NCBI GenBank assembly: GCA_945892765.1
Contig: CAMDDQ010000003.1
Location: 1 to 63,179 of the forward strand
Direction of reading: 5' to 3'
Length of the DNA: 63,179 bases
From: Asaia bogorensis
GTDB lineage: Bacteria; Pseudomonadota; Alphaproteobacteria; CACIAM-22H2
Under the pieces are notes generated by a model. It ran no database searches and was not told the DNA's origin. It was given only the letters and a program-made list of their open reading frames with translations. Shown here piece after piece: positions 7,412 through 63,179 of this stretch. Numbering within the stretch: the first letter of the stretch is position 1; each line of letters starts with the position of its first letter. A program made the position numbers and the translations under genes.

Positions 7412-7421
7412 AACGAGGGCG

Positions 7422-20390: not shown

Positions 20391-20885
20391 ATGCTGTTCA
20401 TCGTCGCTGCCATTGTTGTAATGGTCAGCGTCCTCGGTGGCTATATGGCCAACGGTGGGCATCTCGCCGTTTTGTGGCAACCCTTCGAGTTCGTGATCAT
20501 CGGAGGCGCCGCCGCCGGTGCCTTTCTGATCGCCAATCCGCAGGGCTACAGCAATTGGGAGCTTTCAACCGACCGCGCCAATTCGAGCCGGCGGGCGCTT
20601 GTCGAAGCCGGCGTTCCCACGAGCAAATTCGAACGCGTCGTCGGCAAGGCAGAACGTGATCCCCTGATTGCCCAAAACGCCTTCGATCCGCGGAATCGCC
20701 GAACCAGCATTCTTATTCTGCGTGAAGCTGGCGAGCCGCCGCCGGAAGGACAATTTCCCGGCGCGCCGAGCGGCGCCACGCGCACGGGCGAGGGACCGGC
20801 GCCGGCACCCACCCGGTCGACGACGACAACCCCATCCGCCGTGCCGGTGACGGTAACGCCACTGCCAACTCAGCCGCGGCGCTAG
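20391..20885 (+). pseudogene. motA'-'motB in-frame deletion remnant (MotA N-terminal ~50 aa fused to MotB C-terminal OmpA-like tail)
   Basis: MLFIVAAIVVMVSVLGGYMANGGHLAVLWQPFEFVIIGGAAAGAFLIANPQ matches MotA TM1 and its following segment. It is followed directly by GYSNWELSTDRANSSRRALVEAGV..NRRTSILIL, the MotB C-terminal peptidoglycan-binding motif. Confidence 0.75.
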
Positions 20886-38958: not shown

Positions 38959-39993
38959 ATGCCATCCTCGCCGATATCCAGTCCGGACCACGCGCCACGA
39001 TTTGAGGACGTCGAGGCCGCCGCAGAACGTATCGCCGGGATTGCCGTTTCCACGCCGCTGCTCGAATCCAGCCTTCTCAACCAACGTCTTGGCGGGCGCC
39101 TCCTGCTCAAGGCAGAAGTGCTGCAGAGGACGGGATCGTTTAAATTTCGCGGCGCCTATAACCGCATTTGCCGCCTCGACGACAATGCGCGGCGCACCGG
39201 CGTGGTCGCCTATTCCTCCGGCAACCACGCCCAGGCTGTCGCGGCGGCGGCACGGCTGCTCGATTTGCCAGCGGTGATCGTGATGCCGCGGGATGCACCG
39301 GCAATCAAGATCGAGATGACGCGTGCGCAGGGCGCCGAAATCGTCTTCTACGACCGACTCCGGGATGTCCGCGAGGCGATTGGCGCCCGCCTCGCCGCCG
39401 AACGAGACGCGATCTTGGTCCCGCCTTATGAAGACCGGTTTGTCATTGCCGGCCAGGGCACGATCGGTCTGGAGCTTGCCGATCAGGCCGAGGCATTGCG
39501 CACCAAACTCGACGCCGTGCTCGTCCCCTGTGGCGGCGGCGGCCTCCTGGCCGGATGTAGTCTTGCCCTCGCCCACCGCATGCCCGGCGCTGATGTCTTG
39601 GCCGTCGAACCCGAGGGTTATGACGATACCGCTCGTTCCCTTGCCGCCGGGCACAGAATCGCCAACGCGGCTGGCCGGTCCAGCTTTTGCGATGCGCTGC
39701 TGACCCCGATTCCGGGCGAGATCACCTTCTCGATCAATGCGCGACTTGCATCCGGCGGCTTGACGGTCACCGACGATCAAGTCGCCGATGCAATGGCGGC
39801 GGCGTTCCAACATCTGAAGCTGATCGTCGAGCCGGGGGGCGCGGTTGCTTTGGCCGCGGTCCTATCGGGCCGATTTGACGCCCGCGGCAAGACGGTCGCG
39901 GTCGTTTGTTCCGGAGGCAATGTCGATTCCGGAACGTTCGCCGCGGCCCTGCGCCGGGTAGATGGAACGCGCACGTCGGGCCTGACGAATTAG
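38959..39993 (+). CDS. PLP-dependent threonine/serine dehydratase
   Basis: PLP-Lys motif QRTGSFKFRGA, SSGNHAQA, and a GGGGL glycine loop. Confidence 0.85.
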   Translation: MPSSPISSPDHAPRFEDVEAAAERIAGIAVSTPLLESSLLNQRLGGRLLLKAEVLQRTGSFKFRGAYNRICRLDDNARRTGVVAYSSGNHAQAVAAAARLLDLPAVIVMPRDAPAIKIEMTRAQGAEIVFYDRLRDVREAIGARLAAERDAILVPPYEDRFVIAGQGTIGLELADQAEALRTKLDAVLVPCGGGGLLAGCSLALAHRMPGADVLAVEPEGYDDTARSLAAGHRIANAAGRSSFCDALLTPIPGEITFSINARLASGGLTVTDDQVADAMAAAFQHLKLIVEPGGAVALAAVLSGRFDARGKTVAVVCSGGNVDSGTFAAALRRVDGTRTSGLTN

Positions 39994-41432
39994 GTCTCCG
40001 ACGCCGCCTTTTGTTCCTCGTCCCAGCCTTGACGCTTGCGGTAAATCGTCGAAGGGCTGACACCGAGATATTTTGCCGCTCTAGTGATGCTACCGCCGCA
40101 TAGCCGGATGGCGTCTTCGACCGCTTCCTGCTCCACACGCCACAGGGGACGGATCGCGGCCTCGGCATTGGCCCCAGGTCCGTCGCCGGCCTCGAGTCGG
40201 TGTCCGGCGGCGCCCGCCCCACCTGGCGCATAAAGGGGCGCGGGCAACATCGCGGGAGTGACGACATCGCCGTCGTGTAGCACCACGATGTTGCGAATGA
40301 CATTTTGGAGCTGACGCACGTTGCCAGGCCAAGAATATCCGCGCAGCAACGCCGACGCCTCGGGCGAGAACCGCGTGAATTGCTTTTTCTCCTCCCGAGC
40401 GAACCGCACCAGGAAGCGGTCGGCGATCACCAAAACATCGTCTTCGCGGTCGCGCAAAGGAGGCAGATCAATGGGGACGACATGCAACCGGTAATAGAGG
40501 TCCTCGCGAAAGCGCCCAGCGCGAACCTCGGCAAGCGGGTCTCGATTGGTGGCGCAGAGGATACGCACATCAACTTGTTCAGTCTTGGAACCGCCAACCT
40601 TTGTGAAGGTCCCCGTTTGCAGGAAGCGCAGCAATTTCGTCTGCAGGCTGGATTCCAGTTCGCAGACTTCGTCGAGAAACAACGTTCCGGCATCGGCGCG
40701 TGTGGCCGCGCCTTCGCGATCGGCCACCGCGCCGGTAAAGGCACCCTTCACATGGCCGAAGATTTCGCTCTCCATCAAATCCTTGGGAATGGCGCCGCAG
40801 TTGATGGCGAGGAAGGGCTTGGTTCGGCGAGGGCTTTGGCGGTGAATCGCCTCCGCGCAGAGCTCCTTGCCGGTTCCGCTGTCGCCGGTGATGAAAACTG
40901 TGGCTCGGCTCGGCGCCGCGCTTTCGATGATTCGATAAACCGCCTGCATGGCGAGAGACGAGCCGATGAAGCCGCCATATTCGTCACGGCCGAAATCGCG
41001 CTTGAAGCTCTCGACGATTTGGCTAAGCCGTTGCCGTTCAAGTGCGTTGCGCACCGTGACCATCAGCCGTTCCGGCGCAAAGGGCTTCACTACAAAGTCG
41101 AAGGCGCCCTCTCGCATCGCCTCGACCGCCACGTTGATCGAGCCATGCGCACTAACCACGACCACCGTGATCGGCCATTCCTGGGCGCGCACCTGTTTCA
41201 AAATGTCGATGCCGTTCATATCCGGCAATTGCAGATCGAGAAGCATGACCTGCGGCATCCGCGCCGCGATGGCGGCAAGCGCGGCGGCGCCATTCTCGGC
41301 CACACTAAGAGTACAGGCCTCGTGGCCGAGGATTTCGCAATAGGCGCGCGCCAAGGCCGGCTTGTCTTCCACCAAGAGGACAATGGGAAGATTTGCGGCG
41401 GCCATCGCCCCATGAGCGGATTCGCGCCCCAT
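39990..41432 (-). CDS. sigma-54-dependent Fis-family response regulator (NtrC/LuxO-like)
   Basis: Receiver (LLDLQLPDMNG, FDFVVKPF), AAA+ domain (GDSGTGKE, GAFTGA, ESELFGH-like), and a C-terminal Fis HTH (RAAKYLGVSPSTIYRK). ATG at 41405 is an alternative start. Confidence 0.85.
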   Translation of the reverse strand: MGRESAHGAMAAANLPIVLLVEDKPALARAYCEILGHEACTLSVAENGAAALAAIAARMPQVMLLDLQLPDMNGIDILKQVRAQEWPITVVVVSAHGSINVAVEAMREGAFDFVVKPFAPERLMVTVRNALERQRLSQIVESFKRDFGRDEYGGFIGSSLAMQAVYRIIESAAPSRATVFITGDSGTGKELCAEAIHRQSPRRTKPFLAINCGAIPKDLMESEIFGHVKGAFTGAVADREGAATRADAGTLFLDEVCELESSLQTKLLRFLQTGTFTKVGGSKTEQVDVRILCATNRDPLAEVRAGRFREDLYYRLHVVPIDLPPLRDREDDVLVIADRFLVRFAREEKKQFTRFSPEASALLRGYSWPGNVRQLQNVIRNIVVLHDGDVVTPAMLPAPLYAPGGAGAAGHRLEAGDGPGANAEAAIRPLWRVEQEAVEDAIRLCGGSITRAAKYLGVSPSTIYRKRQGWDEEQKAASET

Positions 41433-44400: not shown

Positions 44401-45117
44401 TTAGGGGATCGCCCCGGCCGCGTAGAGGATATTGACGATCTCGCCCTGCCGCCGGCTTCGCGCATGGGTGAGCGGAGTCTTGCCGTCGCGATCACCGAGA
44501 TTGACGGAGGCGCCGGCCTCGACCAGGAGCCGGACGATCTCCGAGTGACGCACTCCGCCATCTCCCAGGATGATCGCCTCCAACAACGCGGTCCAGCCGA
44601 GGTTGTTGACATGGTCGATATTGATCGCCGTCCCGAGCAGCTCGCGCACCGTCTCGACATGTCCGTAATGCGCGGCCGGTATCAGCGCGGTTCCGCCATA
44701 ACGATTGACGCTTGCAAGATCGGCACCGCTAGCGAGGGTCAAGCGCAAGATCTCGCTGTGTCCCGATGCTCCCGCCAAAAGAAAGGGACTGTCCTCGATG
44801 TTATCCTTGGCATTCACATCCGATCTGGCCGCGATCAGGACGCGTGCGGCGTCCACGTGATTGCCCTGAGTCGCGGCCAGCAACGCCGTCCGGCCACTGC
44901 CATCGCGGGCGTTCACATCGGCTCCGCCGCCGATGAGGCGCCCGACTTCCTTGGCGTCACCGCGAGCGGCCCCCGCTATCAAGGCCTGTTCCGCAGCGAT
45001 CGTCTGCGCGGCGGCTGGCTGTTCGACAGACATCCAGAGCAGAATACCCGCAATCAACCGAATTAGCCGCACCGGCCGTAGCCCGGCCTTTCCCTGCGTT
45101 GGGTGCAATCTTGCCAT
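44401..45117 (-). CDS. secreted ankyrin repeat protein
   Basis: N-terminal signal-like helix (LIRLIAGILLWMSVEQPAAAQ), then five or more ANK repeats (G.TALL.A...GH...V..L...GA..N). Stop lies 4 nt upstream of the MBL start. Confidence 0.85.
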   Translation of the reverse strand: MARLHPTQGKAGLRPVRLIRLIAGILLWMSVEQPAAAQTIAAEQALIAGAARGDAKEVGRLIGGGADVNARDGSGRTALLAATQGNHVDAARVLIAARSDVNAKDNIEDSPFLLAGASGHSEILRLTLASGADLASVNRYGGTALIPAAHYGHVETVRELLGTAINIDHVNNLGWTALLEAIILGDGGVRHSEIVRLLVEAGASVNLGDRDGKTPLTHARSRRQGEIVNILYAAGAIP

Positions 45118-47343: not shown

Positions 47344-48714
47344 TTAGTTGACTTGAGGTACGATGAAGACTTGTCCGGGATATATTATGCTCGGGTCGCG
47401 AATCTGATCGCGGTTGGCCTGATAGATAGTGGTGAAGCGAACACCCTGGCCATAGGATCGGCGGGCGATTCGCCACAAGCTATTTCCAGGCTGAACGATG
47501 ACGCGGCCCTCGCTGGGCAGTTGGAGCGAAAGATCAGCGCGGACAAACGGTACTTCGAGACGCGCAACCACCCTCCCGCCCGGCGAGATCTGATCGACAC
47601 GCAAGGTATGCACACCCGGGTCCACGGGCTCCTGCGGTGTGAGCGTCCAATCGCCCACGATACTACTCTCCGTGCGGCCGACGGGTTGGTTGTCGACATA
47701 GACTTGAACCGATTCGCCAGGAGATGACCGTCCGCCGAAGACTACGTTCCCGGCGTCGTCGTAATCGACCGTGTCGAGATTGAGCACTGGTCCTTGGGCG
47801 TTTGTGGAGGGGGCCGGCTCGACCGGCGGCGCCTGTAGGACAGTGGAACGGCCCGCTCCTTCGCGCGGAGCCAGCAACGCCAATGGAGGAGTTGGCCGCG
47901 CGGCGGCTTCTCCGGCCAGATCCCTTCCCGGTTGCGGCACCGCCAAAACGACGACGTCATCGGAGCGTTGCGCCGGCCGGCCGGGCAATTCGGCCTTCAG
48001 GCTCAACTCGCGGTTGCCAGGCGCGAGGCGTTTGTCAGGCACGCCAACCCACTCTCCACGCGTATCGGCTTTGGCCCGCGCAATCTCGGTTTCGCTGTCA
48101 TACACAGTGACAATCGAGTCGGGTGCGGCACGACCAGCGATGACCGCCTCTCCCAAGGGGCTGACCCGCACGACGTCAAAGGATGGATTGGCTGGAGCGG
48201 GCGGTGCCAGTTGAGGCACCGCCGCGGGAGCCGACGCGGCTGGACTTGCCGGTGGCGTGACAACCGGAGGAGGCGGCGTCGCCGGCTCGGGCAGAGCCGC
48301 CTGGGCCGTCGCGGGCGGCCTGGATGTGGATGTGGTCGGCGGGGTCGGGACGGGTGCAGGCCGCACCTCGGCGCCAAGCGACGGCGGAATTGGTGCGGGC
48401 ACCGCCGCCGGTGGTGGCGTCAGGGCGGGAATAGTGACCGGCGATTGTGTGGCGGGAGCCTGGGTTGCGAAGGCGGGGTTCGTGTCCGGGGGCGGGCCGA
48501 CAACAGGCGGCGCCACAGGCTCCGGCGATGCGCGCGCTGCGGTGGGTGGATCTGCGGTGGCCGTCTCGATCGCGGGAGGCGCAATCCTTCGCGGCGTTTC
48601 GGCCAGCGGCACAGGGCGCCAGTCCTCGTCGCGCAACTGAATCCACGCCAAGATCGTCGCCGCAGCGACAAGAGCGGAGCCTAGTACGACGACGACCAGC
48701 GGTCGGTTGGTCAA
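47344..48714 (-). CDS. LysM peptidoglycan-binding domain protein (Pro/Ala-rich)
   Basis: N-terminal TM helix, long P/A/T-rich low-complexity linker, C-terminal LysM (GNSLWRIARRSYG..YQANRDQIRDPSIIYPGQVFIVP). Confidence 0.85.
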   Translation of the reverse strand: MTNRPLVVVVLGSALVAAATILAWIQLRDEDWRPVPLAETPRRIAPPAIETATADPPTAARASPEPVAPPVVGPPPDTNPAFATQAPATQSPVTIPALTPPPAAVPAPIPPSLGAEVRPAPVPTPPTTSTSRPPATAQAALPEPATPPPPVVTPPASPAASAPAAVPQLAPPAPANPSFDVVRVSPLGEAVIAGRAAPDSIVTVYDSETEIARAKADTRGEWVGVPDKRLAPGNRELSLKAELPGRPAQRSDDVVVLAVPQPGRDLAGEAAARPTPPLALLAPREGAGRSTVLQAPPVEPAPSTNAQGPVLNLDTVDYDDAGNVVFGGRSSPGESVQVYVDNQPVGRTESSIVGDWTLTPQEPVDPGVHTLRVDQISPGGRVVARLEVPFVRADLSLQLPSEGRVIVQPGNSLWRIARRSYGQGVRFTTIYQANRDQIRDPSIIYPGQVFIVPQVN

Positions 48715-48785
48715 CTCAACATCCTCTCACGCCGCCCACGCAATTACGGTAGTACGCAATATCGCGGGGTGCAACGTCCATTGAG

Positions 48786-48822
48786 GAAAAAACAAGCGCG
48801 AAGAGTCTCCCCTTCGCGCTTG
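48786..48822 (-). terminator. rho-independent terminator downstream of the cytochrome pseudogene
   Basis: CAAGCGCGAAG-8 nt-CTTCGCGCTTG stem followed on the minus strand by a T6-7 run (plus-strand GAAAAAA at 48786-48792). Confidence 0.7.
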
Positions 48823-48852
48823 CCCGAAACCGAAGTATCTCTCGAAAAAAAC

Positions 48853-49317
48853 CTATCTGCTCCGGAAAGTCTCGCGGCAACCGCCGCAGGCTTGCTGAGT
48901 GGCGGTGATCTGGGCCTTTAGCGCGTTTTCGTCGGTGCCCTTGGCAGCTACGATCAACTTCGCCGATTCCGCCTCGAACTTTTTCGCGGCGGCCACGAAG
49001 TCATCCCTCTTGGACCAGATTTCGGGCTTGGCACGAGTCTCCGCGCCGGCGTTAGACCCGGCCGGAAAGAGAGAAGGAATCTGCATCCTAACGGCGTTGA
49101 GGGCCGTCGCAAATTCGACAAATCCGCCTTTGAACGTCACGGTGCCCTTGGCGAATTCGCCCATTGCACCCATGTGCGACGTGTTAGCCGTCATCAGCGA
49201 CTTCCGCTATTTGATCACATTGGCCGGTTCATCGGCGGCCTGGACCATGCCCGCGACGCCGGTTAAGCAAAAAGCGAGCCCGGCAATAATCGCCGTCTTA
49301 TTCACACGATACTTCAC
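48853..49317 (-). pseudogene. class II cytochrome c (c556/c'-like) pseudogene: in-frame TAG plus CxxCH-to-CxxCR
   Basis: GTG 49317 with upstream GGAGGAAAG opens a signal peptide, VKYRVNKTAIIAGLAFCLTGVAGMVQAADEPANVIK. TAG at 49209-49207 falls where both paralogues have Tyr (IAYRR / IRYRQ). The frame then continues RKSLMTANTSHMGAMGEFAKG... The C-terminal motif reads CGGCRE instead of CxxCH. Confidence 0.75.
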
Positions 49318-49476
49318 GGTCTTTCCTCCATGGATATTCCGACAGGGCATTCCCAGTCGACTGCACGCAATTTGAACACGTTGCCATCGACACTATTATG
49401 AACACATCGCGACCGAAATTATTCCCAACCAACCAGGGCGGGGGCTCAAATCACAACGTCTTGATCGCGAAAAGGA

Positions 49477-49502
49477 AAGCGGCGAGCCAATAGGCTCGCC
49501 GC
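49477..49502 (-). terminator. rho-independent terminator candidate downstream of cytochrome gene 49554-50042
   Basis: AGCGGCGAGCC-aata-GGCTCGCCGCT, an 11-bp stem followed on the minus strand by TTCCTTTTCG. Confidence 0.65.
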
Positions 49503-49553
49503 TCTGCCAGACCCTCGGCCCGCCACAGCAGGGCCGAGCACTGTCGAAGTTTA

Positions 49554-50042
49554 CTATTTCGCCGCGGGTGGCAGCGGCTTGCGGAAGGGCTGATGGCAGC
49601 CGCCGCAGGCCTGCGCGACCTTTCCGATCTGGTCCTTCATTGCGGCCTCATTGCCGGCCGCGGCCACTTCGGCCAGCTTCGTACCTTCTTCGCCCAGGCG
49701 TTTTGCCGCGGCCAAGAAATCCGCATTTTTCTGCCAAATCTCGGGTTTAGCGTTGGTCCTGCCGGTATCGGTGCCCGCGGGAAACATTCCGGGGAGCTCG
49801 AGGGATGTTCCAACCAACGCGGCCGCGTAGGCTTTGATCGTTTCCTTTGTCACAATCGTGACCTCGCCCTTGGCAAAGGCGTTGAGGGCCGCCAGATAGT
49901 CCGCGTTCCCCTTCATAGCTTCCTGCCGATAGCGAATCATGTCCAGGGGGCGTGCCTGGGCGAACGCCTCGGCCGCGATTCCAGCGGCCGCGAGTGCAAC
50001 GCCACCGATCATCATGCCGATCGCCAAATTGCGTCTCATCAA
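49554..50042 (-). CDS. class II cytochrome c (cytochrome c556/c'-family)
   Basis: Signal peptide, four-helix-bundle-type sequence, single C-terminal heme site ACGGCHQPFR, N-terminal Met candidate ligand (YRQEAMKG). Confidence 0.8.
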   Translation of the reverse strand: MMRRNLAIGMMIGGVALAAAGIAAEAFAQARPLDMIRYRQEAMKGNADYLAALNAFAKGEVTIVTKETIKAYAAALVGTSLELPGMFPAGTDTGRTNAKPEIWQKNADFLAAAKRLGEEGTKLAEVAAAGNEAAMKDQIGKVAQACGGCHQPFRKPLPPAAK

Positions 50043-50103
50043 ACTCCTCCCATCTTCGAATGCGCCAAATATTGAACCAAGCGAGTCGCGGTTACCCGCG
50101 ACA

Positions 50104-51048
50104 TCATCTCGGCCGCTCTATCTTGTGGTCGATCGGGGGCAGCGAAAGGATGTATTTGGACATCGCCGTCCGATCCGCGTCTGTCATCTTGCTTGTGCTT
50201 TCGCGCACGACCTCGGCCATAAGGCCGCCTACGACGTCACCGCCCGGTACCGCGCCAGTCTTCAACATGTAGGCGAAATCGATGTCGTCCCATTCGCCAA
50301 TGCCGGTCGCCTCATGTGGCGTGATATTCGGGGCCATCTCGCCTTCCGGCCCGTCGATCGATCCAGCCATCCACCTGCTGCGATCCATTCCGCCCAACAG
50401 GTTGCGCGGCGTATGGCATTCGGCGCAATGGCCGAGCGCCTCGGTCAGATACGCGCCCCGGTTCCATTCCGCGGATTTCGCGGGATCAGGCTTGTATACG
50501 CCTTCCTTGAAGAAAAGCATTTTCCAGCCGATCTGCAGGAATCGGAGATTGAAGGGGAAGCCGATGTCGTGAGGTTTGTTAGCCTGCGCGACCGGCGGCA
50601 GCGAAAAGATATAGGCCTTCAAATCTTTGATGTCCTGATCGGTCATCAAAGTAAACGACGTGTAGGGGAAGACCGGAAAATAGTGCGATCCGTTGGGCGA
50701 AATGCCCTCGCGCAAGGCGCGGGTGAAGTCGGCATCAGTCCACTTGCCGATGCCGTTCACCGGGTCCGCGGTGATATTGGGGCTGTAGAAGGTTCCAAAG
50801 GGCGTGGGCAGAGCCCGGCCGCCGGCCAGTTGGGCGCCCTTGTTCTTGGTATCGGTGTGGCAGGGCGCGCAATCGGCGGCCCTGAAGACATATTCCCCGC
50901 GCTTGATCGCATCGGCATTGGCCTGCGCCGCGGCCGGCGAGGCCGCCGCGAGCATCCCGCCCGCGATCACGAGCAGGGAGGCGAGGCCATTCAGGAGCAC
51001 GTTCGCCGGGGTGGCGGTCATCGGATCACCGTTTTGCATCGGGCCCAA
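50104..51048 (-). CDS. diheme c-type cytochrome (dehydrogenase cytochrome-c-subunit-like)
   Basis: Signal/TM segment and two CxxCH sites (CAPCH, CAECH). Resembles the cytochrome subunits of membrane-bound dehydrogenases. Confidence 0.8.
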   Translation of the reverse strand: MGPMQNGDPMTATPANVLLNGLASLLVIAGGMLAAASPAAAQANADAIKRGEYVFRAADCAPCHTDTKNKGAQLAGGRALPTPFGTFYSPNITADPVNGIGKWTDADFTRALREGISPNGSHYFPVFPYTSFTLMTDQDIKDLKAYIFSLPPVAQANKPHDIGFPFNLRFLQIGWKMLFFKEGVYKPDPAKSAEWNRGAYLTEALGHCAECHTPRNLLGGMDRSRWMAGSIDGPEGEMAPNITPHEATGIGEWDDIDFAYMLKTGAVPGGDVVGGLMAEVVRESTSKMTDADRTAMSKYILSLPPIDHKIERPR

Positions 51049-51054
51049 CGCGAC

Positions 51055-51546
51055 CTAACGATTAATGCGGAACGGCTCGTGGCAGATCGCGCAGGCGCGG
51101 CTCATGTTTTCGATCTCGCTGGTGAGCACCTGGTTATCACTACCCTTCACCGCGGCCAGCAATTTTTCGCCGGCGCCCACGACCTGGACGACAATCTTGT
51201 TGAACTCGTCGGTTTTCTGCCAAATGGCCGGATCGGCGATGGTGTCGCCGCCCTTTTCCGTGCCCTTTGGGAATACGCTCGGGATTTCCTTGGAGCCCGC
51301 GATGATGGCCTCGGTCCAACCGGCGAAACCCGCCTTGGAGGTTGTCCGCCCCTTCGCGAAGCTCGCCATCGCGTCGAGGTGGTGGCCCATGGCGAGCATC
51401 ACCGCCCGACGATAAGCAATGATTTTCTCCGGCTCGTTGGCCGCGGACGCACTGAAATCGGCGCCGAAAAGCGCCGCCAGGCCAATGCCGCCAATGATCA
51501 AACCCTTGGTAACGCTCCGTCGCATCAATTCCTCCCGTCGTCGCAA
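51055..51546 (-). CDS. class II cytochrome c (cytochrome c556/c'-family)
   Basis: Paralogue of 49554-50042. Signal peptide, AYRRAVMLAMG, C-terminal CAICHEPFR. ATG at 51525 is an alternative start. Confidence 0.8.
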   Translation of the reverse strand: MRRREELMRRSVTKGLIIGGIGLAALFGADFSASAANEPEKIIAYRRAVMLAMGHHLDAMASFAKGRTTSKAGFAGWTEAIIAGSKEIPSVFPKGTEKGGDTIADPAIWQKTDEFNKIVVQVVGAGEKLLAAVKGSDNQVLTSEIENMSRACAICHEPFRINR

Positions 51547-51714
51547 GCCAAATCTACGCTCCCAGACAGGACTTTTTGATCCAGTCTGGTTCGGCGCAAG
51601 TGAAGTCTGTATAGCAGAGCCCTAGGCAGGGTGGAAGCCCCAGCGCCGTGGACTATCCACCGCAGGCGGCGGCACCCGCGCAGGTCGTCATTTTCATGGT
51701 GTAGGACCCCGCAC

Positions 51715-52299
51715 ATGGCCGAAATCCAGTCCTTGTGCGTTTTCTGTGGATCCTCAAATTCAGGGCCAGCGGCGCACCGCGACGCCGCGGCGCAATTTGG
51801 TACGGTGCTCGCGCATTCCGGCATCCACCTGGTCTTTGGCGGCGGCCGCGTCGGCCTCATGGGGGTCGTGGCCGATGCCGCACTGGCGGCCGGCGGGCGT
51901 GTGACCGGGGTCATACCCAAATTCCTGGAGGTCATCGAAGTCGGGCATCCCGGCGCCACGCAATTGCTGGTGGTCGACAACATGCACACGCGAAAACGCA
52001 AGATGTTCGATATGTCCGAGGCGTTCGTTATCCTGCCGGGCGGCCTGGGGACGTTGGACGAGATGTTCGAAGTCTTGACCTGGAAATACCTCGGCCTCCA
52101 CGCCAAGCCGATCGTCATCGCCGATTTCGACGGCTATTGGCAGCCCCTGCTGACGCAAATCTCGAGCCAGATACAAAACGGCTACACCGCGACTGAAGCT
52201 CAAAAAATATTTTCAGTGGTCGAAAGGGTCGAGGATATTCTGCCCGCGATTGAATCTGCGCGCGTCACACTCGCCGCCCCGGCATCCGAACGGCTGTGA
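51715..52299 (+). CDS. LOG family protein (TIGR00730 Rossmann-fold nucleotide hydrolase)
   Basis: [28 protein letters not shown] motifs. ATG at 51715. Confidence 0.85.
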
Positions 52300-52352
52300 G
52301 CCAGGCGGCCCGTGCGGCCGAGACTCTTCGATTCCGCAACGGGAGTACAGAT

Positions 52353-53567
52353 ATGAAAAAGATCAAGGTCGCCAATCCCATCGTCGACGTCGATGGCGAC
52401 GAAATGACGCGCATATTCTGGAAGATGATCAAGGATCGATTGATCCTCCCCTATCTCGACATCGACGTGAAATATTTCGACCTGGGCATTGAAAATCGCG
52501 ATGCCACCGAAGATCGGGTCACGGTCGAAGCCGCCGAGGCGATCCAAAAATACCGGGTCGGCGTGAAATGCGCGACCATTACGCCCGACGAGACACGCGT
52601 GACCGAATTCAAACTCAAAAAGATGTGGAAATCGCCGAACGGCACGATCCGCAACATACTCGACGGCACCGTGTTTCGCGAACCGATCATCTGCAAGAAC
52701 GTCCCGCGCCTTATCACGACCTGGACACAACCCATCGTCATCGGCCGCCACGCTTTCGGCGATCAATATCGCGCCACCGATTTTCGGGTGCCCGGTCCCG
52801 GCAAGCTGACGATGACGTTCACGCCGACCGGCGGCGGCAAACCGGTGCAATACGACGTGTTCGATTTCCCCAGCTCCGGCGTCGCGCTCGGCATGTACAA
52901 TTTGGACGACTCAATTCGCGGCTTCGCCCGCGCCTGCTGCAACTACGCGCTGAACCGCGGCTGGCCGCTCTATCTCTCGACCAAGAACACCATCCTCAAA
53001 GCCTATGACGGACGCTTCAAGGACATCTTCCAAGAGGTGTTCGAAAAGGAATTCACCGGCCCCTTCGCGGCGAAGAAGTTGAGCTACGAACATCGGCTGA
53101 TCGACGACATGGTGGCGACGGCGCTCAAGGTCAGCGGCGGTTTTGTCTGGGCCTGCAAGAATTATGACGGCGACGTGCAATCGGATTCGCTGGCTCAAGG
53201 GTTCGGATCGCTTGGCCTGATGACGTCGGTGCTGCTAACGCCCGACGGCAAGGTAGTGGAGGCGGAGGCCGCCCACGGCACCGTCACGCGCCATTACCGC
53301 GAGCACCAGCAGGGACGCGAGACCTCGACCAACCCGATCGCCTCGATCTTCGCTTGGACGCGGGGGCTCGCCTATCGCGGCGAGTTCGACGGGACGCCCG
53401 AGGTCAAGCGTTTTGCCGACACGCTGGAAAAGGTCTGCATCGACACCGTCGAAGCCGGCGACATGACAAAAGACCTCGCCGTGTTGGTCGGGCCGAAGCA
53501 GAAATGGCTGACGACGCGTCAGTATTTCGACAAGGTCGATGCAAATTTGAAAAAGATCTTGGCGTAA
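52353..53567 (+). CDS. icd: NADP-dependent isocitrate dehydrogenase (homodimeric, eukaryote-like type)
   Basis: [21 protein letters not shown]..., [17 protein letters not shown] and NYDGDVQSD motifs. 404 aa. Confidence 0.95.
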
Positions 53568-53576
53568 GGTGGAATT

Positions 53577-53598
53577 GGGCGGGCCTCTCGGCCCGCCC
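53577..53598. terminator. GC-rich hairpin between convergent icd and alaS (bidirectional terminator candidate)
   Basis: GGGCGGGCC-tctc-GGCCCGCCC, a perfect 9-bp stem lying between the two stop codons. Confidence 0.65.
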
Positions 53599-53606
53599 TA
53601 AGAAAA

Positions 53607-56261
<2,655 letters not shown>

Positions 56262-56491
56262 GGCTTCGTCCTTGAGGAAAACCGCAGGCGCACCCGGAAC
56301 TTGGGGCCCTCAAGGCTCCCGCATCCGTGCGGCCGGTCCGGCATCGCCGTGTTGATGTAGCCTGGGGCCGGAGATGTGTCCAGAAGGCGCTCGGCGGATC
56401 GGACCCGCGCACGCGTAAGGGGTCCCGATTTGTCGCGTGACTTAAGGCCTCGGACGGCGACCGTCCAAGGCCGCGCACGCCGAAAGGAACA

Positions 56492-56515
56492 GGGCCGGGG
56501 GATTGGCCCCGGCCC
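56492..56515 (-). terminator. rho-independent terminator candidate downstream of recA
   Basis: GGGCCGGGG..CCCCGGCCC stem about 10 nt after the recA stop. On the minus strand it is followed by TGTTCCTTTCGG. Confidence 0.6.
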
Positions 56516-56524
56516 CGATTTTGT

Positions 56525-57598
<1,074 letters not shown>

Positions 57599-57651
57599 GA
57601 TGCACCTTTCCTTATTTCACAGGGTTTTAAGTGATGCAACGTAAGGCCAAT

Positions 57652-57666
57652 GTACATGATTTGTTC
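57652..57666. promoter_or_regulatory. candidate alphaproteobacterial SOS (LexA) box upstream of recA: GTAC-N7-GTTC
   Basis: tGTACATGATTTGTTC lies 54-68 nt upstream of the recA ATG. It resembles the GTTC-N7-GTTC direct-repeat LexA motif, with one half-site deviating (GTAC). Confidence 0.5.
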
Positions 57667-57708
57667 AAATATTTTCCCGCCCGGAGGCGGTTGCGTTGAG
57701 ACGGGATT

Positions 57709-57723
57709 GTACACATTTTGTTC
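57709..57723. promoter_or_regulatory. second candidate SOS (LexA) box upstream of recA: GTAC-N7-GTTC
   Basis: tGTACACATTTTGTTC is a near copy of the first box, 57 nt further upstream, in the same AT-rich recA leader. Confidence 0.5.
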
Positions 57724-57761
57724 TCACATACAAGCATTACAAAATTTTGGTTTTAGCCGGC

Positions 57762-58600
57762 CTACCCAAGGGCTTCCTTGACCGCGGTGGCGAGCACCTC
57801 GAGCGTGAAGGGTTTGAGGAGGAAATTCACATTCTTCAGATGCTCCAGGCGCTTACGTAGGGATTCCTCAGCGTAGCCGGAATGCAGATGACCTTGAGTT
57901 TGGGATGGGTTTCACGCGCATTGCGGATCAATGTCGGCCCATCCATCTGCCGCATGACGACATCGGTTACGAGTAGATCGATGCCCGCGCCATGTTGGGC
58001 GAGCAGTTCCAGCGCACCTTCGCCGCTTTCGGCCTCGATCACCCGGTAGCCCTTGTTGCGCAGAGCGCGGACGCTGAACAGGCGCACGACGTCTTCGTCC
58101 TCGACCAACAAAACGGTGCCGACTCCGGTTATATCCTTGGCTGGCGTGGAAACCGGCATGGCCGGTCGGGCGACTTCGGGCGGTGCCGCGTGGCGCGGGA
58201 GAAGGATACTGAAATTAGCCCCCTCGCCCGGCGCGCTCTCGACATAAACGAGCCCACCGGTTTGGCGAACGATGCCGTAGACCGTCGACAGACCGAGCCC
58301 GGTGCCGGAGCCGACCGCCTTGGTCGAAAAGAACGGCTCGAAGATGCGGCCGACGATCTCCTTGGGAATGCCCGTGCCGGTATCCACGACCTCGATCAAC
58401 ACATAATCCCCCGCCGGCACCGATTCGGAGCCCCGTCGCAATGGCTCCGTCACCCTCCGATTGCTGGTGCGGATCGTGAGCGTACCGCCACTGGCCATGG
58501 CGTCGCGGGCGTTAACGGCGAGATTGATGATGACCTGCTCGAATTGGCCTTGGTCGACCTTGATCTGGCCGAGGCTCGCCCCGCCCTTCGCCAGAACGTG
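57762..58600 (-). pseudogene. CckA-like hybrid sensor histidine kinase/response regulator remnant (N-terminal sensor and HisKA missing; 1-nt frameshift near 57880)
   Basis: Only the HATPase_c domain (QFEQVIINLAVNARDAM, DTGTGIP, GTGLGLSTVYGIVRQTGG) and the receiver (VLLVEDED..LLVTDVVM) are present. After KVICI the frame yields PATLRNPYVSAWSI*, whereas a neighbouring frame continues SGYAEESLRKRLEHLKNVNFLLKPFTLEVLATAVKEALG* to TAG at 57764-57762. Confidence 0.75.
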
Positions 58601-59458
58601 GTCGTCGAAGGCGCCACCATTCGCCTCGGCGATCTGTTCGACGATGCCGGCGCCAAGGCCGGCGAGCCGGTGGCCGCCGCCCCCGCCCCCGGACGTAAGA
58701 TTTTGTTCGAGGCAAGTTGGTTGAGTGACATCGCGCGGACCTACCGACTGTCCTGGCGTCCGGCAAGCCGCTATGACCGAACCGTCGTCGAACGCGCGGG
58801 CCGCCGCTTCGACGCGGCCGAGATCACCGGCCGCCTAAGGCTCGCCCTGGTCGCCGCCGGTGCCCCCGGCGATTCTGAAATCGAAATCGCCAACCGCGAT
58901 CTCGAAATGTTCGTCGCCATCGAGGCCCCGGCCACGATCGAGATCCAAAATCTTTCCTTCGATCGCAACACCAGCCGCTTTTCCGCGGTTGCCGCCGTCG
59001 GCGGCGATCATCCGAGCGCGGCGCGCACGGCCGTCAACGGCCGCATTTATCGCACGGCGCAGGTTCCCGTGTTGCGGCGCCCAATCGGCGCCGGCGACGT
59101 CATCGCCAAGTCCGACATTGAAATGGTGAGGATACGGGAGGAACGCCTTCGCCCGGGAACAATCGTCGATGCTTCGGATTTGATTGGTTTCACGCCGTGC
59201 CTGCGCGTGCGGGCCGGAGACCCGGTGCGCGAGGACGAGATCCGTCCACCGATCCTTGTCGCCAAGAACAGCCTGGTGACCATCGTTCTGCGAACCAACA
59301 GTATGATCCTGACGGTTCAAGGCAAGGCGCTCGAAGACGGGGCCAAGAACGACGTCATCCAAGTCATGAACCTGCAAAGCAAGAAGATCCTCGACGGGCA
59401 GGTCGTGGAATCGGGCACCGTCACGGTGGCCGGCCAGTCAATCCTAGCCGCCCAATGA
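58598..59458 (+). CDS. flgA: flagellar basal-body P-ring formation chaperone FlgA, lacking native start and signal peptide
   Basis: VVVEGATIRLGDLFDDAG..AAAPAPGRK.. and the C-terminal SAF/FlgA domain (VLVAKNSLVTIVLRTNSMILTVQGKALEDGAKNDVIQVMNLQSKKIL). No signal peptide: upstream in-frame sequence is antisense to the kinase remnant. GTG 58598 is only a possible surrogate start. Confidence 0.7.
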   Translation: MVVEGATIRLGDLFDDAGAKAGEPVAAAPAPGRKILFEASWLSDIARTYRLSWRPASRYDRTVVERAGRRFDAAEITGRLRLALVAAGAPGDSEIEIANRDLEMFVAIEAPATIEIQNLSFDRNTSRFSAVAAVGGDHPSAARTAVNGRIYRTAQVPVLRRPIGAGDVIAKSDIEMVRIREERLRPGTIVDASDLIGFTPCLRVRAGDPVREDEIRPPILVAKNSLVTIVLRTNSMILTVQGKALEDGAKNDVIQVMNLQSKKILDGQVVESGTVTVAGQSILAAQ

Positions 59459-59502
59459 CCCGCGAATTTTCAGGCCAAGTCCCGGCCCCGAAGGAGACTC
59501 CA

Positions 59503-59947
59503 ATGTCCCGCACCCGCCTTTCCCGTTTGATGTCTCGCGTTTTGATCGCCGTCATGGCCATTGCGCCGGGAGCATGCACGGGCACACTCGACCGCCTCGC
59601 GCAGGTCGGCGACCAACCGCCGTTGACGCGAATTCAGAATCCGCAGGCAGTTCCTGGCTATCAGCCCGTTTCGATGCCGATGCCGCCGCCCTTGCCCAAC
59701 GATCGCGGCAGCAATTCCCTGTGGCGGCCGGGCGCGCGGGCGTTCTTCAAGGATCAACGCGCGAACCAAGTCGGCGATATCGTCACTGTCTTGATCACGA
59801 TGAGCGAGAACGCGTCATTGAGCAACTCCACGGAACGCACGCGGACGAACACCGAGAGCGCGGCGATGCCCAAGCTCCTCGGCTATGAAGGAAAAGAGCT
59901 GCGGAAAGTGCTCCCGGAAGCGCTCGACCCAACGAACCTCATTGGCC
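59503..59947 (+). pseudogene. flgH: flagellar L-ring protein FlgH, 5' fragment (interrupted by IS)
   Basis: AAGGAG RBS at 59491, ATG 59503, signal peptide ending IAPGAC, then SLWRPGARAFFKDQRANQVGDIVTVLI. FlgH similarity stops at the IS left end. Confidence 0.85.
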
Positions 59948-59977
59948 TGCTGCCGGTTTTGTGGACACCGAGTTAGG
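59948..59977. repeat. IS left terminal inverted repeat (TGCTGCCGGTTTTGTGGACACCGAGTTAGG)
   Basis: Matches the reverse complement of 61153-61182 at 20/21 terminal positions and about 24/30 overall. Preceded by the GGCC target duplication at 59944-59947. Confidence 0.85.
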
Positions 59978-60000
59978 TGTTTTGATGGAACCGGAGGTAG

Positions 60001-60294
60001 GTGATGGAGAGACGGAAGTTTACGCGCGAGTTCAAGCTTGAGGCAGTGAAGCTGATCAGGGATCGCGGGGTGGGCTATGCGCAAGCCTCGCGCGATCTGG
60101 GTGTTCATCCGACGGTGCTGCGGAGCTGGGTGAAGGCGCTTGCCGATGACCCACAGCAGGCATTCCCGGGCTACGGTCAGATGAAGCCCGAGCAGGCGGA
60201 GATCGCGCGGCTGAAGCGCGAAGTGATCAAGCTGAAGGCCGAACGGGACATCCTAAAAAAAGCCGCGGCCTACTTCGCGAAGGAATCGATGTGA
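60001..60294 (+). CDS. IS3 family transposase OrfA (HTH)
   Basis: RRKFTREFKLEAVKLI..GVGYAQASRDLGVHPTVLRSWVK plus a leucine-zipper-like tail ending KKAAAYFAKES, the classical IS3 OrfA layout. Confidence 0.9.
   Translation: MMERRKFTREFKLEAVKLIRDRGVGYAQASRDLGVHPTVLRSWVKALADDPQQAFPGYGQMKPEQAEIARLKREVIKLKAERDILKKAAAYFAKESM
60255..60262 (+). promoter_or_regulatory. programmed -1 ribosomal frameshift slippery site (AAAAAAAG) of the IS3 element
   Basis: A7G run near the end of orfA. orfB (60291-61157) is in the -1 frame relative to orfA and overlaps it. Confidence 0.75.
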
Positions 60295-61157
60295 GGTTCG
60301 CCTTCATCGCGAAGCATCGAGGGATATGGCCGGCGGGATGGATGTGCGGGGCGCTCGGTGTCTCGCGGGCTGGCTACCATGCCTGGCTGATACGGCCACG
60401 CAGCCGGCGCAGTCGCGACGACGAGGAACTGGGCACGAAGGTGCGGTCGAGCTTCGTGGCGAGCGATCGGACCTACGGGGCCAGGAGGGTGTGGCACGAC
60501 CTGCTTGCCGAGGGCGTGCCGTGCGGGTTGCATCGGATCGAGCGGCTGATGCGGCGCCAAGCCCTGCGGGCGAGGCCACGCCGACGCCGCCTGCCGTCCG
60601 ACACCGGTGAGCGATCCACCAGCGCCATTGCCGCGAACGTGCTGGACCGTACCTTCGAGGCACCGGCTCCCAACCGCAAATGGATCGCCGACTTCACCTA
60701 TATCTGGACGGCGGAGGGCTGGCTCTACGTGGCGGCCGTGGTCGATCTCTTCTCCCGCCGCGTGGTCGGCTGGTCGATGAGCGCGACCATGACGGCGCAG
60801 CTCGTCACCGACGCCCTCATCATGGCGATCTGGCGGCGGGGCAAGCCCGACGCGCTGCTGCACCACTCCGATCGCGGCAGCCAGTACACCAGCGAACAGT
60901 TCCAGCGCCTGATGGCCGATCACGGCGTCACCTGCTCGATGAGCCGCTCGGGCAACGTCTGGGACAACGCGGCGATGGAGAGCTTCTTCTCTTCATTGAA
61001 GATCGAGCGCACGGCGCGCAAGACCTATCGGACACGGGACGAAGCAAAGGCCGATGTGTTCGATTGCGTCGAACGCTTCTACAATCCGAAACGGCGCCAC
61101 TCGACCATCGGCTATGTCAGTCCAATGGAGTTCGAAATGAAGGCTGAATTAGCTTAA
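60291..61157 (+). CDS. IS3 family transposase OrfB (DDE integrase core; normally made as OrfAB fusion)
   Basis: rve/DDE core: WIADFTYI (D), HHSDRGSQYTS (D), NAAMESFFSSLK (E), and a C-terminal YNPKRRHSTIGYVSPMEFE. Confidence 0.9.
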   Translation: MRFAFIAKHRGIWPAGWMCGALGVSRAGYHAWLIRPRSRRSRDDEELGTKVRSSFVASDRTYGARRVWHDLLAEGVPCGLHRIERLMRRQALRARPRRRRLPSDTGERSTSAIAANVLDRTFEAPAPNRKWIADFTYIWTAEGWLYVAAVVDLFSRRVVGWSMSATMTAQLVTDALIMAIWRRGKPDALLHHSDRGSQYTSEQFQRLMADHGVTCSMSRSGNVWDNAAMESFFSSLKIERTARKTYRTRDEAKADVFDCVERFYNPKRRHSTIGYVSPMEFEMKAELA

Positions 61158-61182
61158 CCTAGTGTCCACGAAACCGGCAGCA
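61153..61182. repeat. IS right terminal inverted repeat
   Basis: Reverse complement TGCTGCCGGTTTCGTGGACACTAGGTTAAG pairs with the left IR. Followed by the GGCC direct repeat at 61183-61186. Confidence 0.85.
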
Positions 61183-61518
61183 GGCCACATCGACCTCAGC
61201 AGCGATTCAGGCAGCAAGGGCACCGGAACCGTCACGCGAAGCGAAGCGCTGACGTTGCGCGTTGCCGCAATCATCACGCAGGTGCTTCCGAACGGCAATT
61301 TGGTCCTCCAGGGACACCAGGAAGTGCGCGTAAATTTCGAAGCGCGCGTGCTGGAACTCAACGGTGTCGTGCGACCGCAGGATATCGCGGCCGCCAACAC
61401 CATTACCTACGACAAGATCGCCGAGGCCCGCATCGGTTATGGCGGCCGCGGACAGCTCACCGACGTCCAGCAGCCGCGTTATGGCCAGCAGGTCCTCGAT
61501 ATTCTCTTCCCGTTCTGA
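61183..61518 (+). pseudogene. flgH: flagellar L-ring protein FlgH, 3' fragment
   Basis: GHIDLSSDSGSKGTGTVTRSEALTLRVAAIITQVLPNGNLVLQGHQEVRVNFEARVLELNGVVRPQDI..IAEARIGYGGRGQL..ILFPF is the conserved FlgH C-terminal core. Confidence 0.85.
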
Positions 61519-61551
61519 CCTGAAGGCTGGGCGGTAGCCGAATACGCGACC

Positions 61552-61573
61552 GCCCGCCGCGCCCAGGGCGGGC
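61552..61573. terminator. hairpin between convergent flgH and dksA
   Basis: GCCCGCC-gcgcccag-GGCGGGC, a 7-bp GC stem with a weak or absent T-tract. Confidence 0.4.
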
Positions 61574-61581
61574 TTCTCGAG

Positions 61582-62001
61582 TTAGTCGTCCCGGTTGGTG
61601 CGTTCGAGGCGTTCGTGCCGTTCCTGAGCCTCGATTGTCATCGTGGCGATCGGGCGGGCCTCGAGGCGGCGCACGTTAATCGGCTCGTCGGTGATCTCGC
61701 AATAGCCATAAGTGCCGTCTTCGATGCGGCGAAGAGCGGAGTCGATCTTGGCGATTAGTTTGCGTTCACGATCCCGAGCGCGGAGTTCGAGGGCCCGGTC
61801 GGTCTCCGCCGAGGCACGGTCGGCAAGATCAGGCGCCGCCACGGTGTCTTCCTGCAGGTGTTGCAAGGTCTCGGTTGAATCGCGCAGCAATTCGGCCCGC
61901 CAGCGCACAAGCTTCTGGCGGAAGTATTCGAGCATCGTCGGATTCATAAACGGCTCGTTGTCGGACGGCCGGTAATTTGGATTGAGAGTTGGCGCCGTCA
62001 T
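61582..62001 (-). CDS. dksA: RNA polymerase-binding transcription factor DksA (zinc-finger cysteines largely absent)
   Basis: Coiled-coil with the acidic tip DRASAETD, and C-terminal GTYGYCEITDEPINVRRLEARP. Only one of the four canonical Cys residues is retained. ATG at 62001. Confidence 0.85.
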   Translation of the reverse strand: MTAPTLNPNYRPSDNEPFMNPTMLEYFRQKLVRWRAELLRDSTETLQHLQEDTVAAPDLADRASAETDRALELRARDRERKLIAKIDSALRRIEDGTYGYCEITDEPINVRRLEARPIATMTIEAQERHERLERTNRDD

Positions 62002-62121
62002 CAACAACCTAGTCTGCTGCTTGGCTTGCGGCGCGCGGAGTATATGAACCGGCTCGGGGTCCATCAAGGCCGTCCGGGATACGGAGCAATCGGTCGCTGC
62101 ACCGGACCGAGCCTTGGAGGA

Positions 62122-62541
62122 CTAGACGTCGCGGTCGAGCTTGGCGAGTTCGACCTGGGCGCGCAAATCAATTTCGTCGAGGATTTCGGCCAAGCGCGGA
62201 TCCGATACGCCAGCTTTTTGGGTGCAAATCACGGTGACGAGTTTGTCGAGACCGGCTGCGGGAATGTCGCCGGCCAGCAACCCCTGCCAAATTTCGTCCA
62301 GCCGATCGAGAATCTCCTCGGCACGGCGGCGGCCCTTGGATTGGGGCGAATCTTCTTCGATACCTTGCAAGGCAACAAGTGCCTCGAGGCCGGATAACGG
62401 CACAGCGGAATTAACGCCAGCGGCGTTGCTCGGACCTTCGAGATGACGGGCGAAGTCGCCGCCCTTGGCCCCGCCGGATTTCTCGGTGCGGCGGGCCGCG
62501 GAGGAGCGGACTGGCGCTTTGGGATCAATCTTCATAGCCAT
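62122..62541 (-). CDS. fliX: flagellar assembly regulator FliX
   Basis: 139 aa. MKIDPK..., a basic/Gly-rich N-terminus and a C-terminal DPRLAEILDEIDLRAQVELAKL. Divergent from flgI, the arrangement known from Caulobacter-type clusters. Confidence 0.75.
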   Translation of the reverse strand: MAMKIDPKAPVRSSAARRTEKSGGAKGGDFARHLEGPSNAAGVNSAVPLSGLEALVALQGIEEDSPQSKGRRRAEEILDRLDEIWQGLLAGDIPAAGLDKLVTVICTQKAGVSDPRLAEILDEIDLRAQVELAKLDRDV

Positions 62542-62823
62542 GGGTTCGACGTCATCCTACCATAAGCTTGGATGCGGCTGCTTTGTTGACCATAGGGCAG
62601 ATGACGCAATCCCGTCACTGGGCAGTATTTGCCGCCGGCTCGGCAAGGTCGGTTCGGACCATTGGCGATTTCAGCGCCGACGGCGCCGGTCCCCAAAAAA
62701 TATTGTTTAATATCAATGTGCTATTGGACTTTCACAGGTGGCATGGCTCTCTCATATCTGGGAACGCACGCTGACCATTTCGGCAGGACGCCGCAACCGC
62801 TACCCGATCGAGGAACGAAGGTC

Positions 62824-63018
62824 ATGGTCCAACCCTGGAAAAACAAAAGGATGTTCGCCGCAGCGGTAGTTGGGCTCACGGCGATCTTCGGGACTTGCGC
62901 CGCGTCGGCCGCTTCGCGAATCAAGGACATCGCGGATTTTCAGGGCGTCCGCACGAATCAACTCATCGGTTACGGTCTGGTCGTCGGTCTGAACGGTGTC
63001 CGTCGTCAATGGATTTGA
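62824..63018 (+). pseudogene. flgI: flagellar P-ring protein FlgI, N-terminal ~58-codon fragment
   Basis: Signal peptide, then [28 protein letters not shown], the conserved FlgI N-terminus. The expected TGD... is replaced by VRRQWI* from about 62997. Confidence 0.8.
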
Positions 63019-63071
63019 GACAACGGGCGCGCTGAGTTAACGGAGGCTGCGGCTCATCTGGTGGGTTGATC

Positions 63072-63179
63072 TTATGCCGCTTGATCGCGATGGATCAAGC
63101 GGCGCTGCTGGATGGTCTGTCGTTTGATTCGGTTGCGTTCGAGCAGGATGGTTTGGGCCCTGCCGAGATAGACGTCGGC
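63072..63179 (-). other. 3' end of an unidentified ORF entering from beyond the right window edge
   Basis: Open frame ..ADVYLGRAQTILLERNRIKRQTIQQRRLIHRDQAA* ending at TAA 63074-63072. The opposite strand is also open (MDQAALLDGLSFDS..), so both strand and identity are unresolved. Confidence 0.25.

Follow-up and report, generated by a model that had tools for sequence, protein, structure and literature searches.

In a 63,179-nt contig of a Rhodospirillales bacterium ("the window" in the following, meaning this whole stretch of DNA), a flagellar basal-body and regulatory gene cluster is, with high probability, in an early phase of reductive decay, five mutational events having put six motility genes out of action. 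The events are a deletion shared by cckA and flgA, a frameshift in cckA, the insertion of an IS3-family insertion sequence (IS) in flgH, an IS3-like element in flgI and a deletion in motAB. According to the proposed course, a single deletion would have taken the 5' ends and promoters of cckA and flgA, with a 1-nt frameshift in what was left of cckA; an intact IS3-family element would have entered flgH, a second one would have struck flgI at codon 58, and motA and motB would have been joined by deletion. A working flagellum of Gram-negative bacteria needs every one of FlgH (L-ring), FlgI (P-ring), FlgA (exported P-ring chaperone) and MotAB (stator). With all of them lost, this flagellar system should be able neither to assemble nor to rotate, and the organism is presumably non-motile.

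Anatomy of the lesions

For comparison we used the closest species representative among 185,579 GTDB genomes, the metagenome-assembled genome (MAG) "Rhodospirillales bacterium CH-Jul18-20" (L001). The cluster is ordered recA, cckA, flgA-flgH, dksA-fliX and flgI. The damaged genes and the elements within them are located as follows.

57762-~58573, minus strand: cckA pseudogene remnant, C-terminal part of HATPase_c plus receiver domain
57878-57881 (~57880), minus strand: 1-nt deletion (frameshift) in the cckA receiver domain; the frame switches after ...KLKVICI
58574-58585: deletion junction (<=12 nt) between truncated cckA (minus) and truncated flgA (plus); homology ends on both sides
58586-59458, plus strand: flgA remnant, ~290 codons, ChapFlgA/SAF domains (Pfam ChapFlgA, 4.6e-31)
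59503-59942, plus strand: 5' part of flgH, lipoprotein signal and N-terminal 146 codons (Pfam FlgH 4-55/172)
59943-61187, plus strand: intact insertion sequence assigned to the IS3 family, 1245 bp; orfA 60004-60294, orfB 60291-61157
61191-61518, plus strand: 3' part of flgH (Pfam FlgH 64-172/172, 1.5e-39), 94.5% amino acid (aa) identity to L001
62824-62996, plus strand: 5' fragment of flgI, signal peptide and first residues, 58 codons (Pfam FlgI 1-27/343)
62997-63179, minus strand: end of a second, different IS3-family element, transposase C-terminus at 63075-63179; the contig ends inside it
20343-20885, plus strand: motA'-'motB in-frame deletion fusion, junction at ~20544

At the recA side of the cluster, a kinase gene is reduced to its C-terminal part, in which Pfam recognized only HATPase_c (positions 35-109/111) and Response_reg (1-84/111). 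The NCBIfam CckA (Brucella) model matched at positions 583-829/868 with 308 bits (E 1e-91), the CckA-Caulobacter model with 265 bits and the next family with 192 bits; with only 247/868 model positions left, the score lies under the whole-protein cutoff of 1000. For the intact homologue P0071, the top match in the PDB is the catalytic core of Caulobacter CckA (5IDJ). In the distant relative L087 (dksA-cckA-recA) and in the contig of P0008 the homologue has recA as its neighbour, just as in the window, and because of this shared position the remnant is assigned as the cckA orthologue and not as a mere look-alike.

The N-terminal two thirds of CckA are gone, comprising the transmembrane (TM)/PAS sensor region and DHp, the domain that bears the phospho-accepting His. 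Measured against the full architecture (TM, PAS, DHp, CA, REC), Pfam found no HisKA domain and REC is frameshifted; judged by its sequence, the remnant is a pseudogene of the family and not a functional member. Homology to cckA begins at LGQIKVDQGQFEQV (nt <=58573), at ...LGQIKVDQGQFEQVIINLAVNARDA. Past the frameshift, the other frame runs SGYAEESLRKRLEHL...KEALG*, matching the relative P0002, and the original stop codon is found at 57762-57764. In addition, the conserved DVVMPQMDG motif reads DVVMRQMDG in the remnant.

The lengths of the database matches had suggested another candidate, a short, sensor-less CckA-like paralogue of 380 aa, which was ruled out by L087 and by the model alignment. 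In L087, PAS-domain coding sequence lies just upstream of cckA in other frames, recA being split too, and the 380-aa "CckA" proteins align to positions 477-867/868 of the CckA model. L087 itself is a long-read metagenomic contig with many frameshifts, in which recA and cckA (6253-10328) are each spread over several open reading frames (ORFs). Database "CckA" entries of 250-383 aa may therefore be truncated calls rather than a family of short kinases; of practical importance for annotation is that many "380-aa CckA" entries look like truncated gene calls.

On the flgA side of the junction, a single deletion removed the 5' ends of both divergent genes together with their shared intergenic promoter region; a truncation of the kinase and a truncation of flgA as two events are ruled out by the one junction of <=12 nt that they share. 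The flgA remnant has no start codon and no signal peptide. Its homology starts at LRQNVVVEG (nt 58586), and in FlgA of Arenibaculum, to which it aligns without frameshifts, the signal peptide MKQILVMVTAAVLFVFAVTAQA directly precedes the aligned part. A 488-aa ORF at 57992-59458 (plus) was rejected as a real gene: its first 198 residues are antisense translation of cckA, a frame that stays open because of the high G+C content. This chimera of antisense cckA fused in frame to the flgA remnant appears as P0263 in one source and as P0264 in an ENA contig, and the consequence for annotation is a 488-aa ORF call that passes antisense through cckA into flgA.

The element that splits flgH can be assigned to the IS3 family on several features. 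It has TG...CA ends with 26-bp inverted repeats (25/26 matching), and a 3-bp target duplication, CAT, surrounds it (59940-59942 and 61188-61190). An A7G slippery site lies at 60255, and with respect to orfA, orfB is read in the -1 frame; NCBIfam NF033516 matches the transposase with 345 bits (cutoff 160), and the Pfam domains are HTH_Tnp_1, rve, HTH_21 and rve_2. In its orfA/orfB arrangement with a -1 frameshift at A7G, its rve DDE domain, its ends, its inverted repeats and its 3-bp duplication it agrees with the known family and shows nothing unusual; it is an ordinary member. Its closest relatives occur widely, on short metagenomic contigs, and of the 589 members in the 90%-identity cluster of OrfB, most come from contigs of 1-2 kb. 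Excision in silico of the element and one CAT gives an uninterrupted FlgH of 255 aa.

In flgI, nucleotide homology to the intact 378-aa gene of L001 stops at 62996, and the second element begins with TG at 62997. A frameshift or plain truncation of flgI is ruled out, since the homology to the L001 gene stops where the TG-initiated IS3-family end begins. The C-terminal peptide of this element is 80% identical to annotated IS3-family transposases from alphaproteobacterial plasmids. The fifth event lies 37 kb from the cluster, where the fusion ORF matches Pfam MotA_N (2-49/91) at aa 21-67 and then OmpA (48-94/98) at aa 69-117.

An earlier note on this DNA, made from the letters alone, had described lesions in the same genes. 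Its IS insertion in flgH holds, as the IS3-family element splits the gene and its excision restores the 255-aa FlgH, and so does its motA'-'motB fusion, in which MotA_N positions are directly joined to OmpA positions. Its "CckA-like kinase" is indeed broken with a real frameshift at ~57880, but it is also 5'-deleted and is cckA itself. Likewise, flgA is broken as stated, but by the deletion that it shares with cckA and not by a separate event. For flgI, a break was seen correctly, but it is due neither to a frameshift nor to a simple truncation; the second IS3-family element causes it, at codon 58.

Two genes inside the cluster are intact:

61582-61998, minus strand: dksA, 138 aa counted from the conserved start, in an ORF that reaches as far as 62067
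62122-62541, minus strand: fliX, 139 aa, the same length as FliX of L001

DksA membership is supported by TIGR02420 (146.5 bits, cutoff 115.5) and by Pfam DksA_N and zf-dskA_traR, and FliX matches Pfam PF10768 over its full length (positions 1-134/135; 113.8 bits, cutoff 25); the NCBIfam FliX equivalogs are the best matches for the latter, yet under their cutoffs. These profile matches and the comparison with L001 bear out the earlier statement that both genes are full-length. The accompanying picture of regulators that remain intact is misleading: cckA is destroyed, dksA is a housekeeping gene under strong constraint (dN/dS 0.025), and one sister lineage has a truncated fliX of 84 aa. The dksA gene is whole at ~139 aa in all three lineages described below and adjoins cckA-recA in L087 without flagellar genes between; it survives because it encodes a general RNA-polymerase-binding factor that merely neighbours the cluster. 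Survival of fliX in the window is owed only to its small target size and the little time elapsed, and there is no sign of an independent retained function. A sigma-54 activator at 39990-41432 (minus) was considered as FlbD and rejected as LuxO-like (618 vs 303 bits). For this sigma-54-dependent response regulator the Vibrio LuxO equivalog beats NtrC, NtrX and FlbD by far, though its 618 bits do not reach the cutoff of 800; the LuxO-like regulator here belongs to a Rhodospirillales bacterium.

Enrichment, reproducibility and age of the lesions

Among the genes of the window, 6/7 motility genes are broken against 2/55 others (Fisher p = 3e-6), and 5/7 lesion events fall in 5.7% of the DNA (event-level binomial p = 1e-5); the null comprises all window genes, and one of dispensable genes only would be fairer. 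The enrichment of lesions in motility genes is well beyond chance. The clustering of five of seven lesions in motility or its regulation, already pointed out in the earlier note, is confirmed by the Fisher test, and its count of at least five independent events in one functional class gave the right total, though their assignment to genes differs.

Its two lesions outside motility, a frameshift in cfa and a truncated cytochrome c' paralogue, are plausible as well. The cfa gene (1-1066, plus) runs off the start of the contig, and its frame changes at ~nt 130-150, with no start codon between 77 and 391; this stretch is covered by the window contig only, and the change could be a sequencing error. 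The cytochrome c' paralogue at 48856-49206 lacks its N-terminus, and the relatives' cluster has the same paralogue at 135-173 aa. It belongs to a group of four cytochrome c' (Cytochrom_C_2) paralogues and a dihaem cytochrome c at 48856-51621 (minus). Ambiguous ORFs that we checked turned out to be intact genes (MatE, PALP enzyme, BioY, ankyrin-repeat protein, Ate and others). The ankyrin-repeat protein (44401-45117, minus; 238 aa) has four Ank_2 stretches and lies amid housekeeping genes.

Besides that, the IS and deletion junctions are also present in separately assembled contigs (assemblies ERZ27280297 and ERZ27280223; run ERR5863107), which match the window there at 99.9-100% identity:

L081: spans window 61047-63171, with both IS junctions, among them that of flgI and the second element
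L082: the flgI junction with the second element, 2 mismatches
L083: the right end of the IS3 element
L086: window 47836-60706, with the left IS3 junction, the cckA/flgA junction and the cckA frameshift, 2 mismatches

Since the junctions recur in separate contigs, they are not assembly artefacts. The window is a metagenomic contig, a point on which the earlier note had advised caution, but its junctions are found again at 99.9-100% identity in other assemblies. It is accordingly very improbable that the lesions stem from assembly or binning, i.e. from chimeric joins at repeats and homopolymer errors. Such an origin would suit a MAG-type contig ending in an IS, and the single-base frameshifts of cckA and cfa could be mimicked by sequencing error; however, L081 and L086 reproduce the lesions, and the target duplication of 3 bp is clean.

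Both IS elements are points at which short-read contigs break, which implies that each is multi-copy. This bears on another explanation, in which a general expansion of IS elements or genome decay strikes any dispensable gene and motility is over-represented as a large non-essential target. It is in agreement with the presence of two different IS3-family elements within 3.3 kb, the breaks of the short-read assembly at both, the 589-member OrfB cluster, and the two non-motility pseudogenes. However, 3/5 motility events are not IS insertions, and no further IS copies were found elsewhere in the window (the other 57 kb). Together with the enrichment (p ~1e-5) and with sister lineages whose same cluster was struck by different means, this leaves general decay an improbable account, although it overlaps with decay of the flagellar cluster, since relaxed selection lets IS elements persist. 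The IS expansion that the earlier note offered as an alternative covers 2/5 events, but not the deletions and the frameshift.

To estimate the age of the lesions, we determined the ratio of nonsynonymous to synonymous substitution rates (dN/dS) against L001. At dS 0.26-0.86, with each estimate resting on 58-139 codons, dN/dS was 0.049 for the flgH 3' fragment, compared with 0.089 for fliX and 0.025 for dksA, and 0.27 for the signal-peptide fragment of flgI. No secondary stops or frameshifts were found in the flgA, flgH and flgI remnants. Low dN/dS and the lack of secondary lesions indicate that inactivation was recent, and the intact state of the IS3-family element itself, with its slippery site and near-perfect inverted repeats, can be listed with the signs of recency. 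The lesions are recurrent in the population yet young, and the fragments resemble genes that were probably under purifying selection until recently. The proposal of the earlier note that the lineage recently stopped using flagella is, for this flagellar system, supported by reproducibility, enrichment and low dN/dS alike.

Host clade and sister lineages

The window has a G+C content of ~62% and carries housekeeping alphaproteobacterial genes (dnaB, radA, purF, der, parC, era, rnc, lepB, spoT, dapA, icd, alaS, recA). Its host belongs to a Rhodospirillales group about which little is known and which is recorded from metagenomes only. L001 shares 94% identity in FliX (93.5% aa) and 88.8% nucleotide identity over 61185-62996; the next relatives are Azospirillaceae, with a FliX identity of only ~50%. 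A scan of JGI metagenomes with FliX returned no relative above 53% identity and hence no further lineages. The sample label "CH-Jul18" stands for the Lake Constance hypolimnion (PMC8547001), which traces the habitat of the L001 MAG. The earlier note had suggested host association as a reason for the loss; nothing indicates this, the closest genome being a lake-water MAG.

In L001 and L088, flgI, a flgJ-like and a flgN-like gene, flgK, flgL, flbT, flaF and two flagellin genes are intact. Their flgH, however, is interrupted directly ahead of LDPTNLI, at a point ~18 bp upstream of the IS site of the window, and passes into unrelated sequence, whose far end begins the ORF MKGVELYGRVRH. The L001 junction was seen again in another contig (P0259). 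With flgH broken in both the window and the L001 lineage, the neutral phase can amount to only a few percent of the path between them. The breakpoints (11357-11519 in L001, 59940-59942 in the window) lie ~18 bp apart and lead into unrelated sequences, which is either coincidence or a local insertion hotspot.

A third lineage, in assembly ERZ1305449, has the order OsmC, SIR2, FliX of 84 aa, DksA, FlgH, CckA remnant and RecA. Its FlgH ORF is uninterrupted and called with 238 aa from an internal Met, followed 76 bp on by a CckA remnant of 212 aa. According to the gene calls, this cluster has no flgA and no flgI, and fliX is truncated. Its CckA remnant (P0002) is cut deeper than that of the window and has an internal deletion of 17 aa in the receiver domain; the deletion is in frame and has the short repeats RAL and (G)AL on its two sides, a sign that it may have arisen by slippage.

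The three lineages are approximately equidistant, with 95-96% identity in FlgH, ~98% in DksA and 94.7% in the CckA remnant outside the gap. Provided that synonymous divergence resembles that against L001, the CckA remnants are too similar for neutral drift since the split, so that the truncations of cckA in the window and in ERZ1305449 would be independent. Two sister lineages carry different lesions in the same cluster, by which the decay runs in parallel across the clade, and selection on motility has presumably been relaxed or reversed there. One further step would be that all three are dismantling the same cckA-flagellar cluster independently and recently under a shared pressure favouring the loss of flagella, an idea that we put forward tentatively and hold to be somewhat less probable than its opposite. 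If it is true, flagellotropic phage, grazing and energy cost are candidate pressures; the clade would offer a natural replicated experiment, and cckA would be dispensable in this order and discarded along with the motility regulon.

Two further observations concern L001 and L088. FlgK is only 470 aa long (L001 6405-7814, L088 3706-5118), and its nearest homologues, of 580-700 aa, are 37-41% identical over 63% of the query; L001 FlgK is either unusually short or internally deleted. In L088 (6585-12699), three large genes with TPR and GT41 (O-GlcNAc-transferase-like) domains lie between flbT and flaF/flagellin and may act in flagellin glycosylation.

The late genes of L001 also bear on the question of whether the organism might still swim by means of a second intact flagellar or stator set, while only a redundant cluster decays. 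Among the related Azospirillaceae, dual flagellation with a polar and a lateral system is known. Beside the same cluster L001 has retained its late genes as a complete set, and only one contig of the host genome is in view; nevertheless, we consider a second system unlikely. In the decaying cluster, fliX, dksA and flgI are arranged in the way that is canonical for alphaproteobacteria and is also found in relatives; the recA-adjacent cckA is destroyed too, and the stator pair far from the cluster is deleted. No second copy of the affected genes lies within the 63 kb. In a protein-database search with L001 FlgK, no homologue between 42% and 99% identity appeared, a slight hint that the window organism might lack flgK or intact paralogous flagellar copies. 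The lack of a close FlgI match was dismissed as a sign of flgI loss, as only cluster representatives were scored and L001 FlgI sits behind a representative of 112 aa.

Several points weigh against decay of the only flagellar system in this organism. The view of the host genome is limited to one contig of 63,179 nt, which ends inside the element at flgI; beyond it lie the remainder of flgI and any further fli, flh and flg genes, and intact second copies or a second flagellar system may exist elsewhere in the genome. The ERZ1305449 lineage is known from gene calls and protein sequences only, not from DNA. At the flgH break of L001 the far side is off the contig, and insertion and rearrangement are indistinguishable. 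The reproducing assemblies are likely to be independent of the raw data of the deposited MAG (different runs and assemblies, and 2 mismatches in each of L082 and L086), and the dN/dS estimates come from short stretches. Altogether, we still regard early reductive decay of the flagellar cluster as the best explanation.

Comparison with known systems

The process is familiar and the example new; the understanding of flagella or of genome decay is unchanged by it. What the window offers is a well-resolved view of how flagellar loss begins in an alphaproteobacterium that is uncultured and probably lives free in fresh water. The early mutations are of several kinds: a deletion that takes in a promoter region, IS insertions of the simple type whose target duplications are intact, and a deletion in the stator genes. 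Neighbouring lineages appear to reach flagellar loss by differing routes. That cckA and the structural genes decay together is in keeping with the view of motility control as the ancestral function of the CtrA pathway in groups other than Caulobacterales and Rhizobiales.

Shigella and Yersinia pestis are examples of flagellar decay. Further precedents are the flagellar loci of Brucella, which contain pseudogenes (PMC8781033, PMC7410920), and non-motile Xanthomonas fuscans, in which the flagellar cluster is affected by deletion (PMC3826837). As in these bacteria, independent lesions by IS insertion, deletion and frameshift have struck flagellar structural and motor genes in the window while the surroundings are intact, and the lineages of the clade carry differing lesions. 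In contrast to these pathogens, the nearest relative here is a lake-water MAG, cckA decays together with the structural genes, and the case is known from sequence alone.

In Caulobacter, FliX-FlbD is a flagellar checkpoint regulator, and the flgI-fliX-dksA neighbourhood is conserved in alphaproteobacteria. The same neighbourhood is present in the window, with an intact 139-aa FliX divergent from flgI and with dksA adjoining. In difference to Caulobacter, the partner structural genes in the window are dead, and fliX is truncated in one sister lineage.

Finally, for Rhodospirillum centenum and for Rhodobacterales the CckA-ChpT-CtrA pathway is described as non-essential and as controlling motility (PMC3692519, citing Greene 2012 and Bird and MacKrell 2011; PMC9430884), and ctrA as non-essential in Magnetospirillum (PMC3692519; PMC9430884). 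With a pathway that is dispensable and directed at motility, the natural loss of cckA alongside flagellar genes is coherent. The recA-adjacent cckA of the window corresponds to the gene of these studies on Rhodospirillales and Rhodobacterales, and its loss together with flagellar genes fits a dispensable motility pathway; the difference is that engineered mutants were examined there, whereas inactivation in the window is natural.

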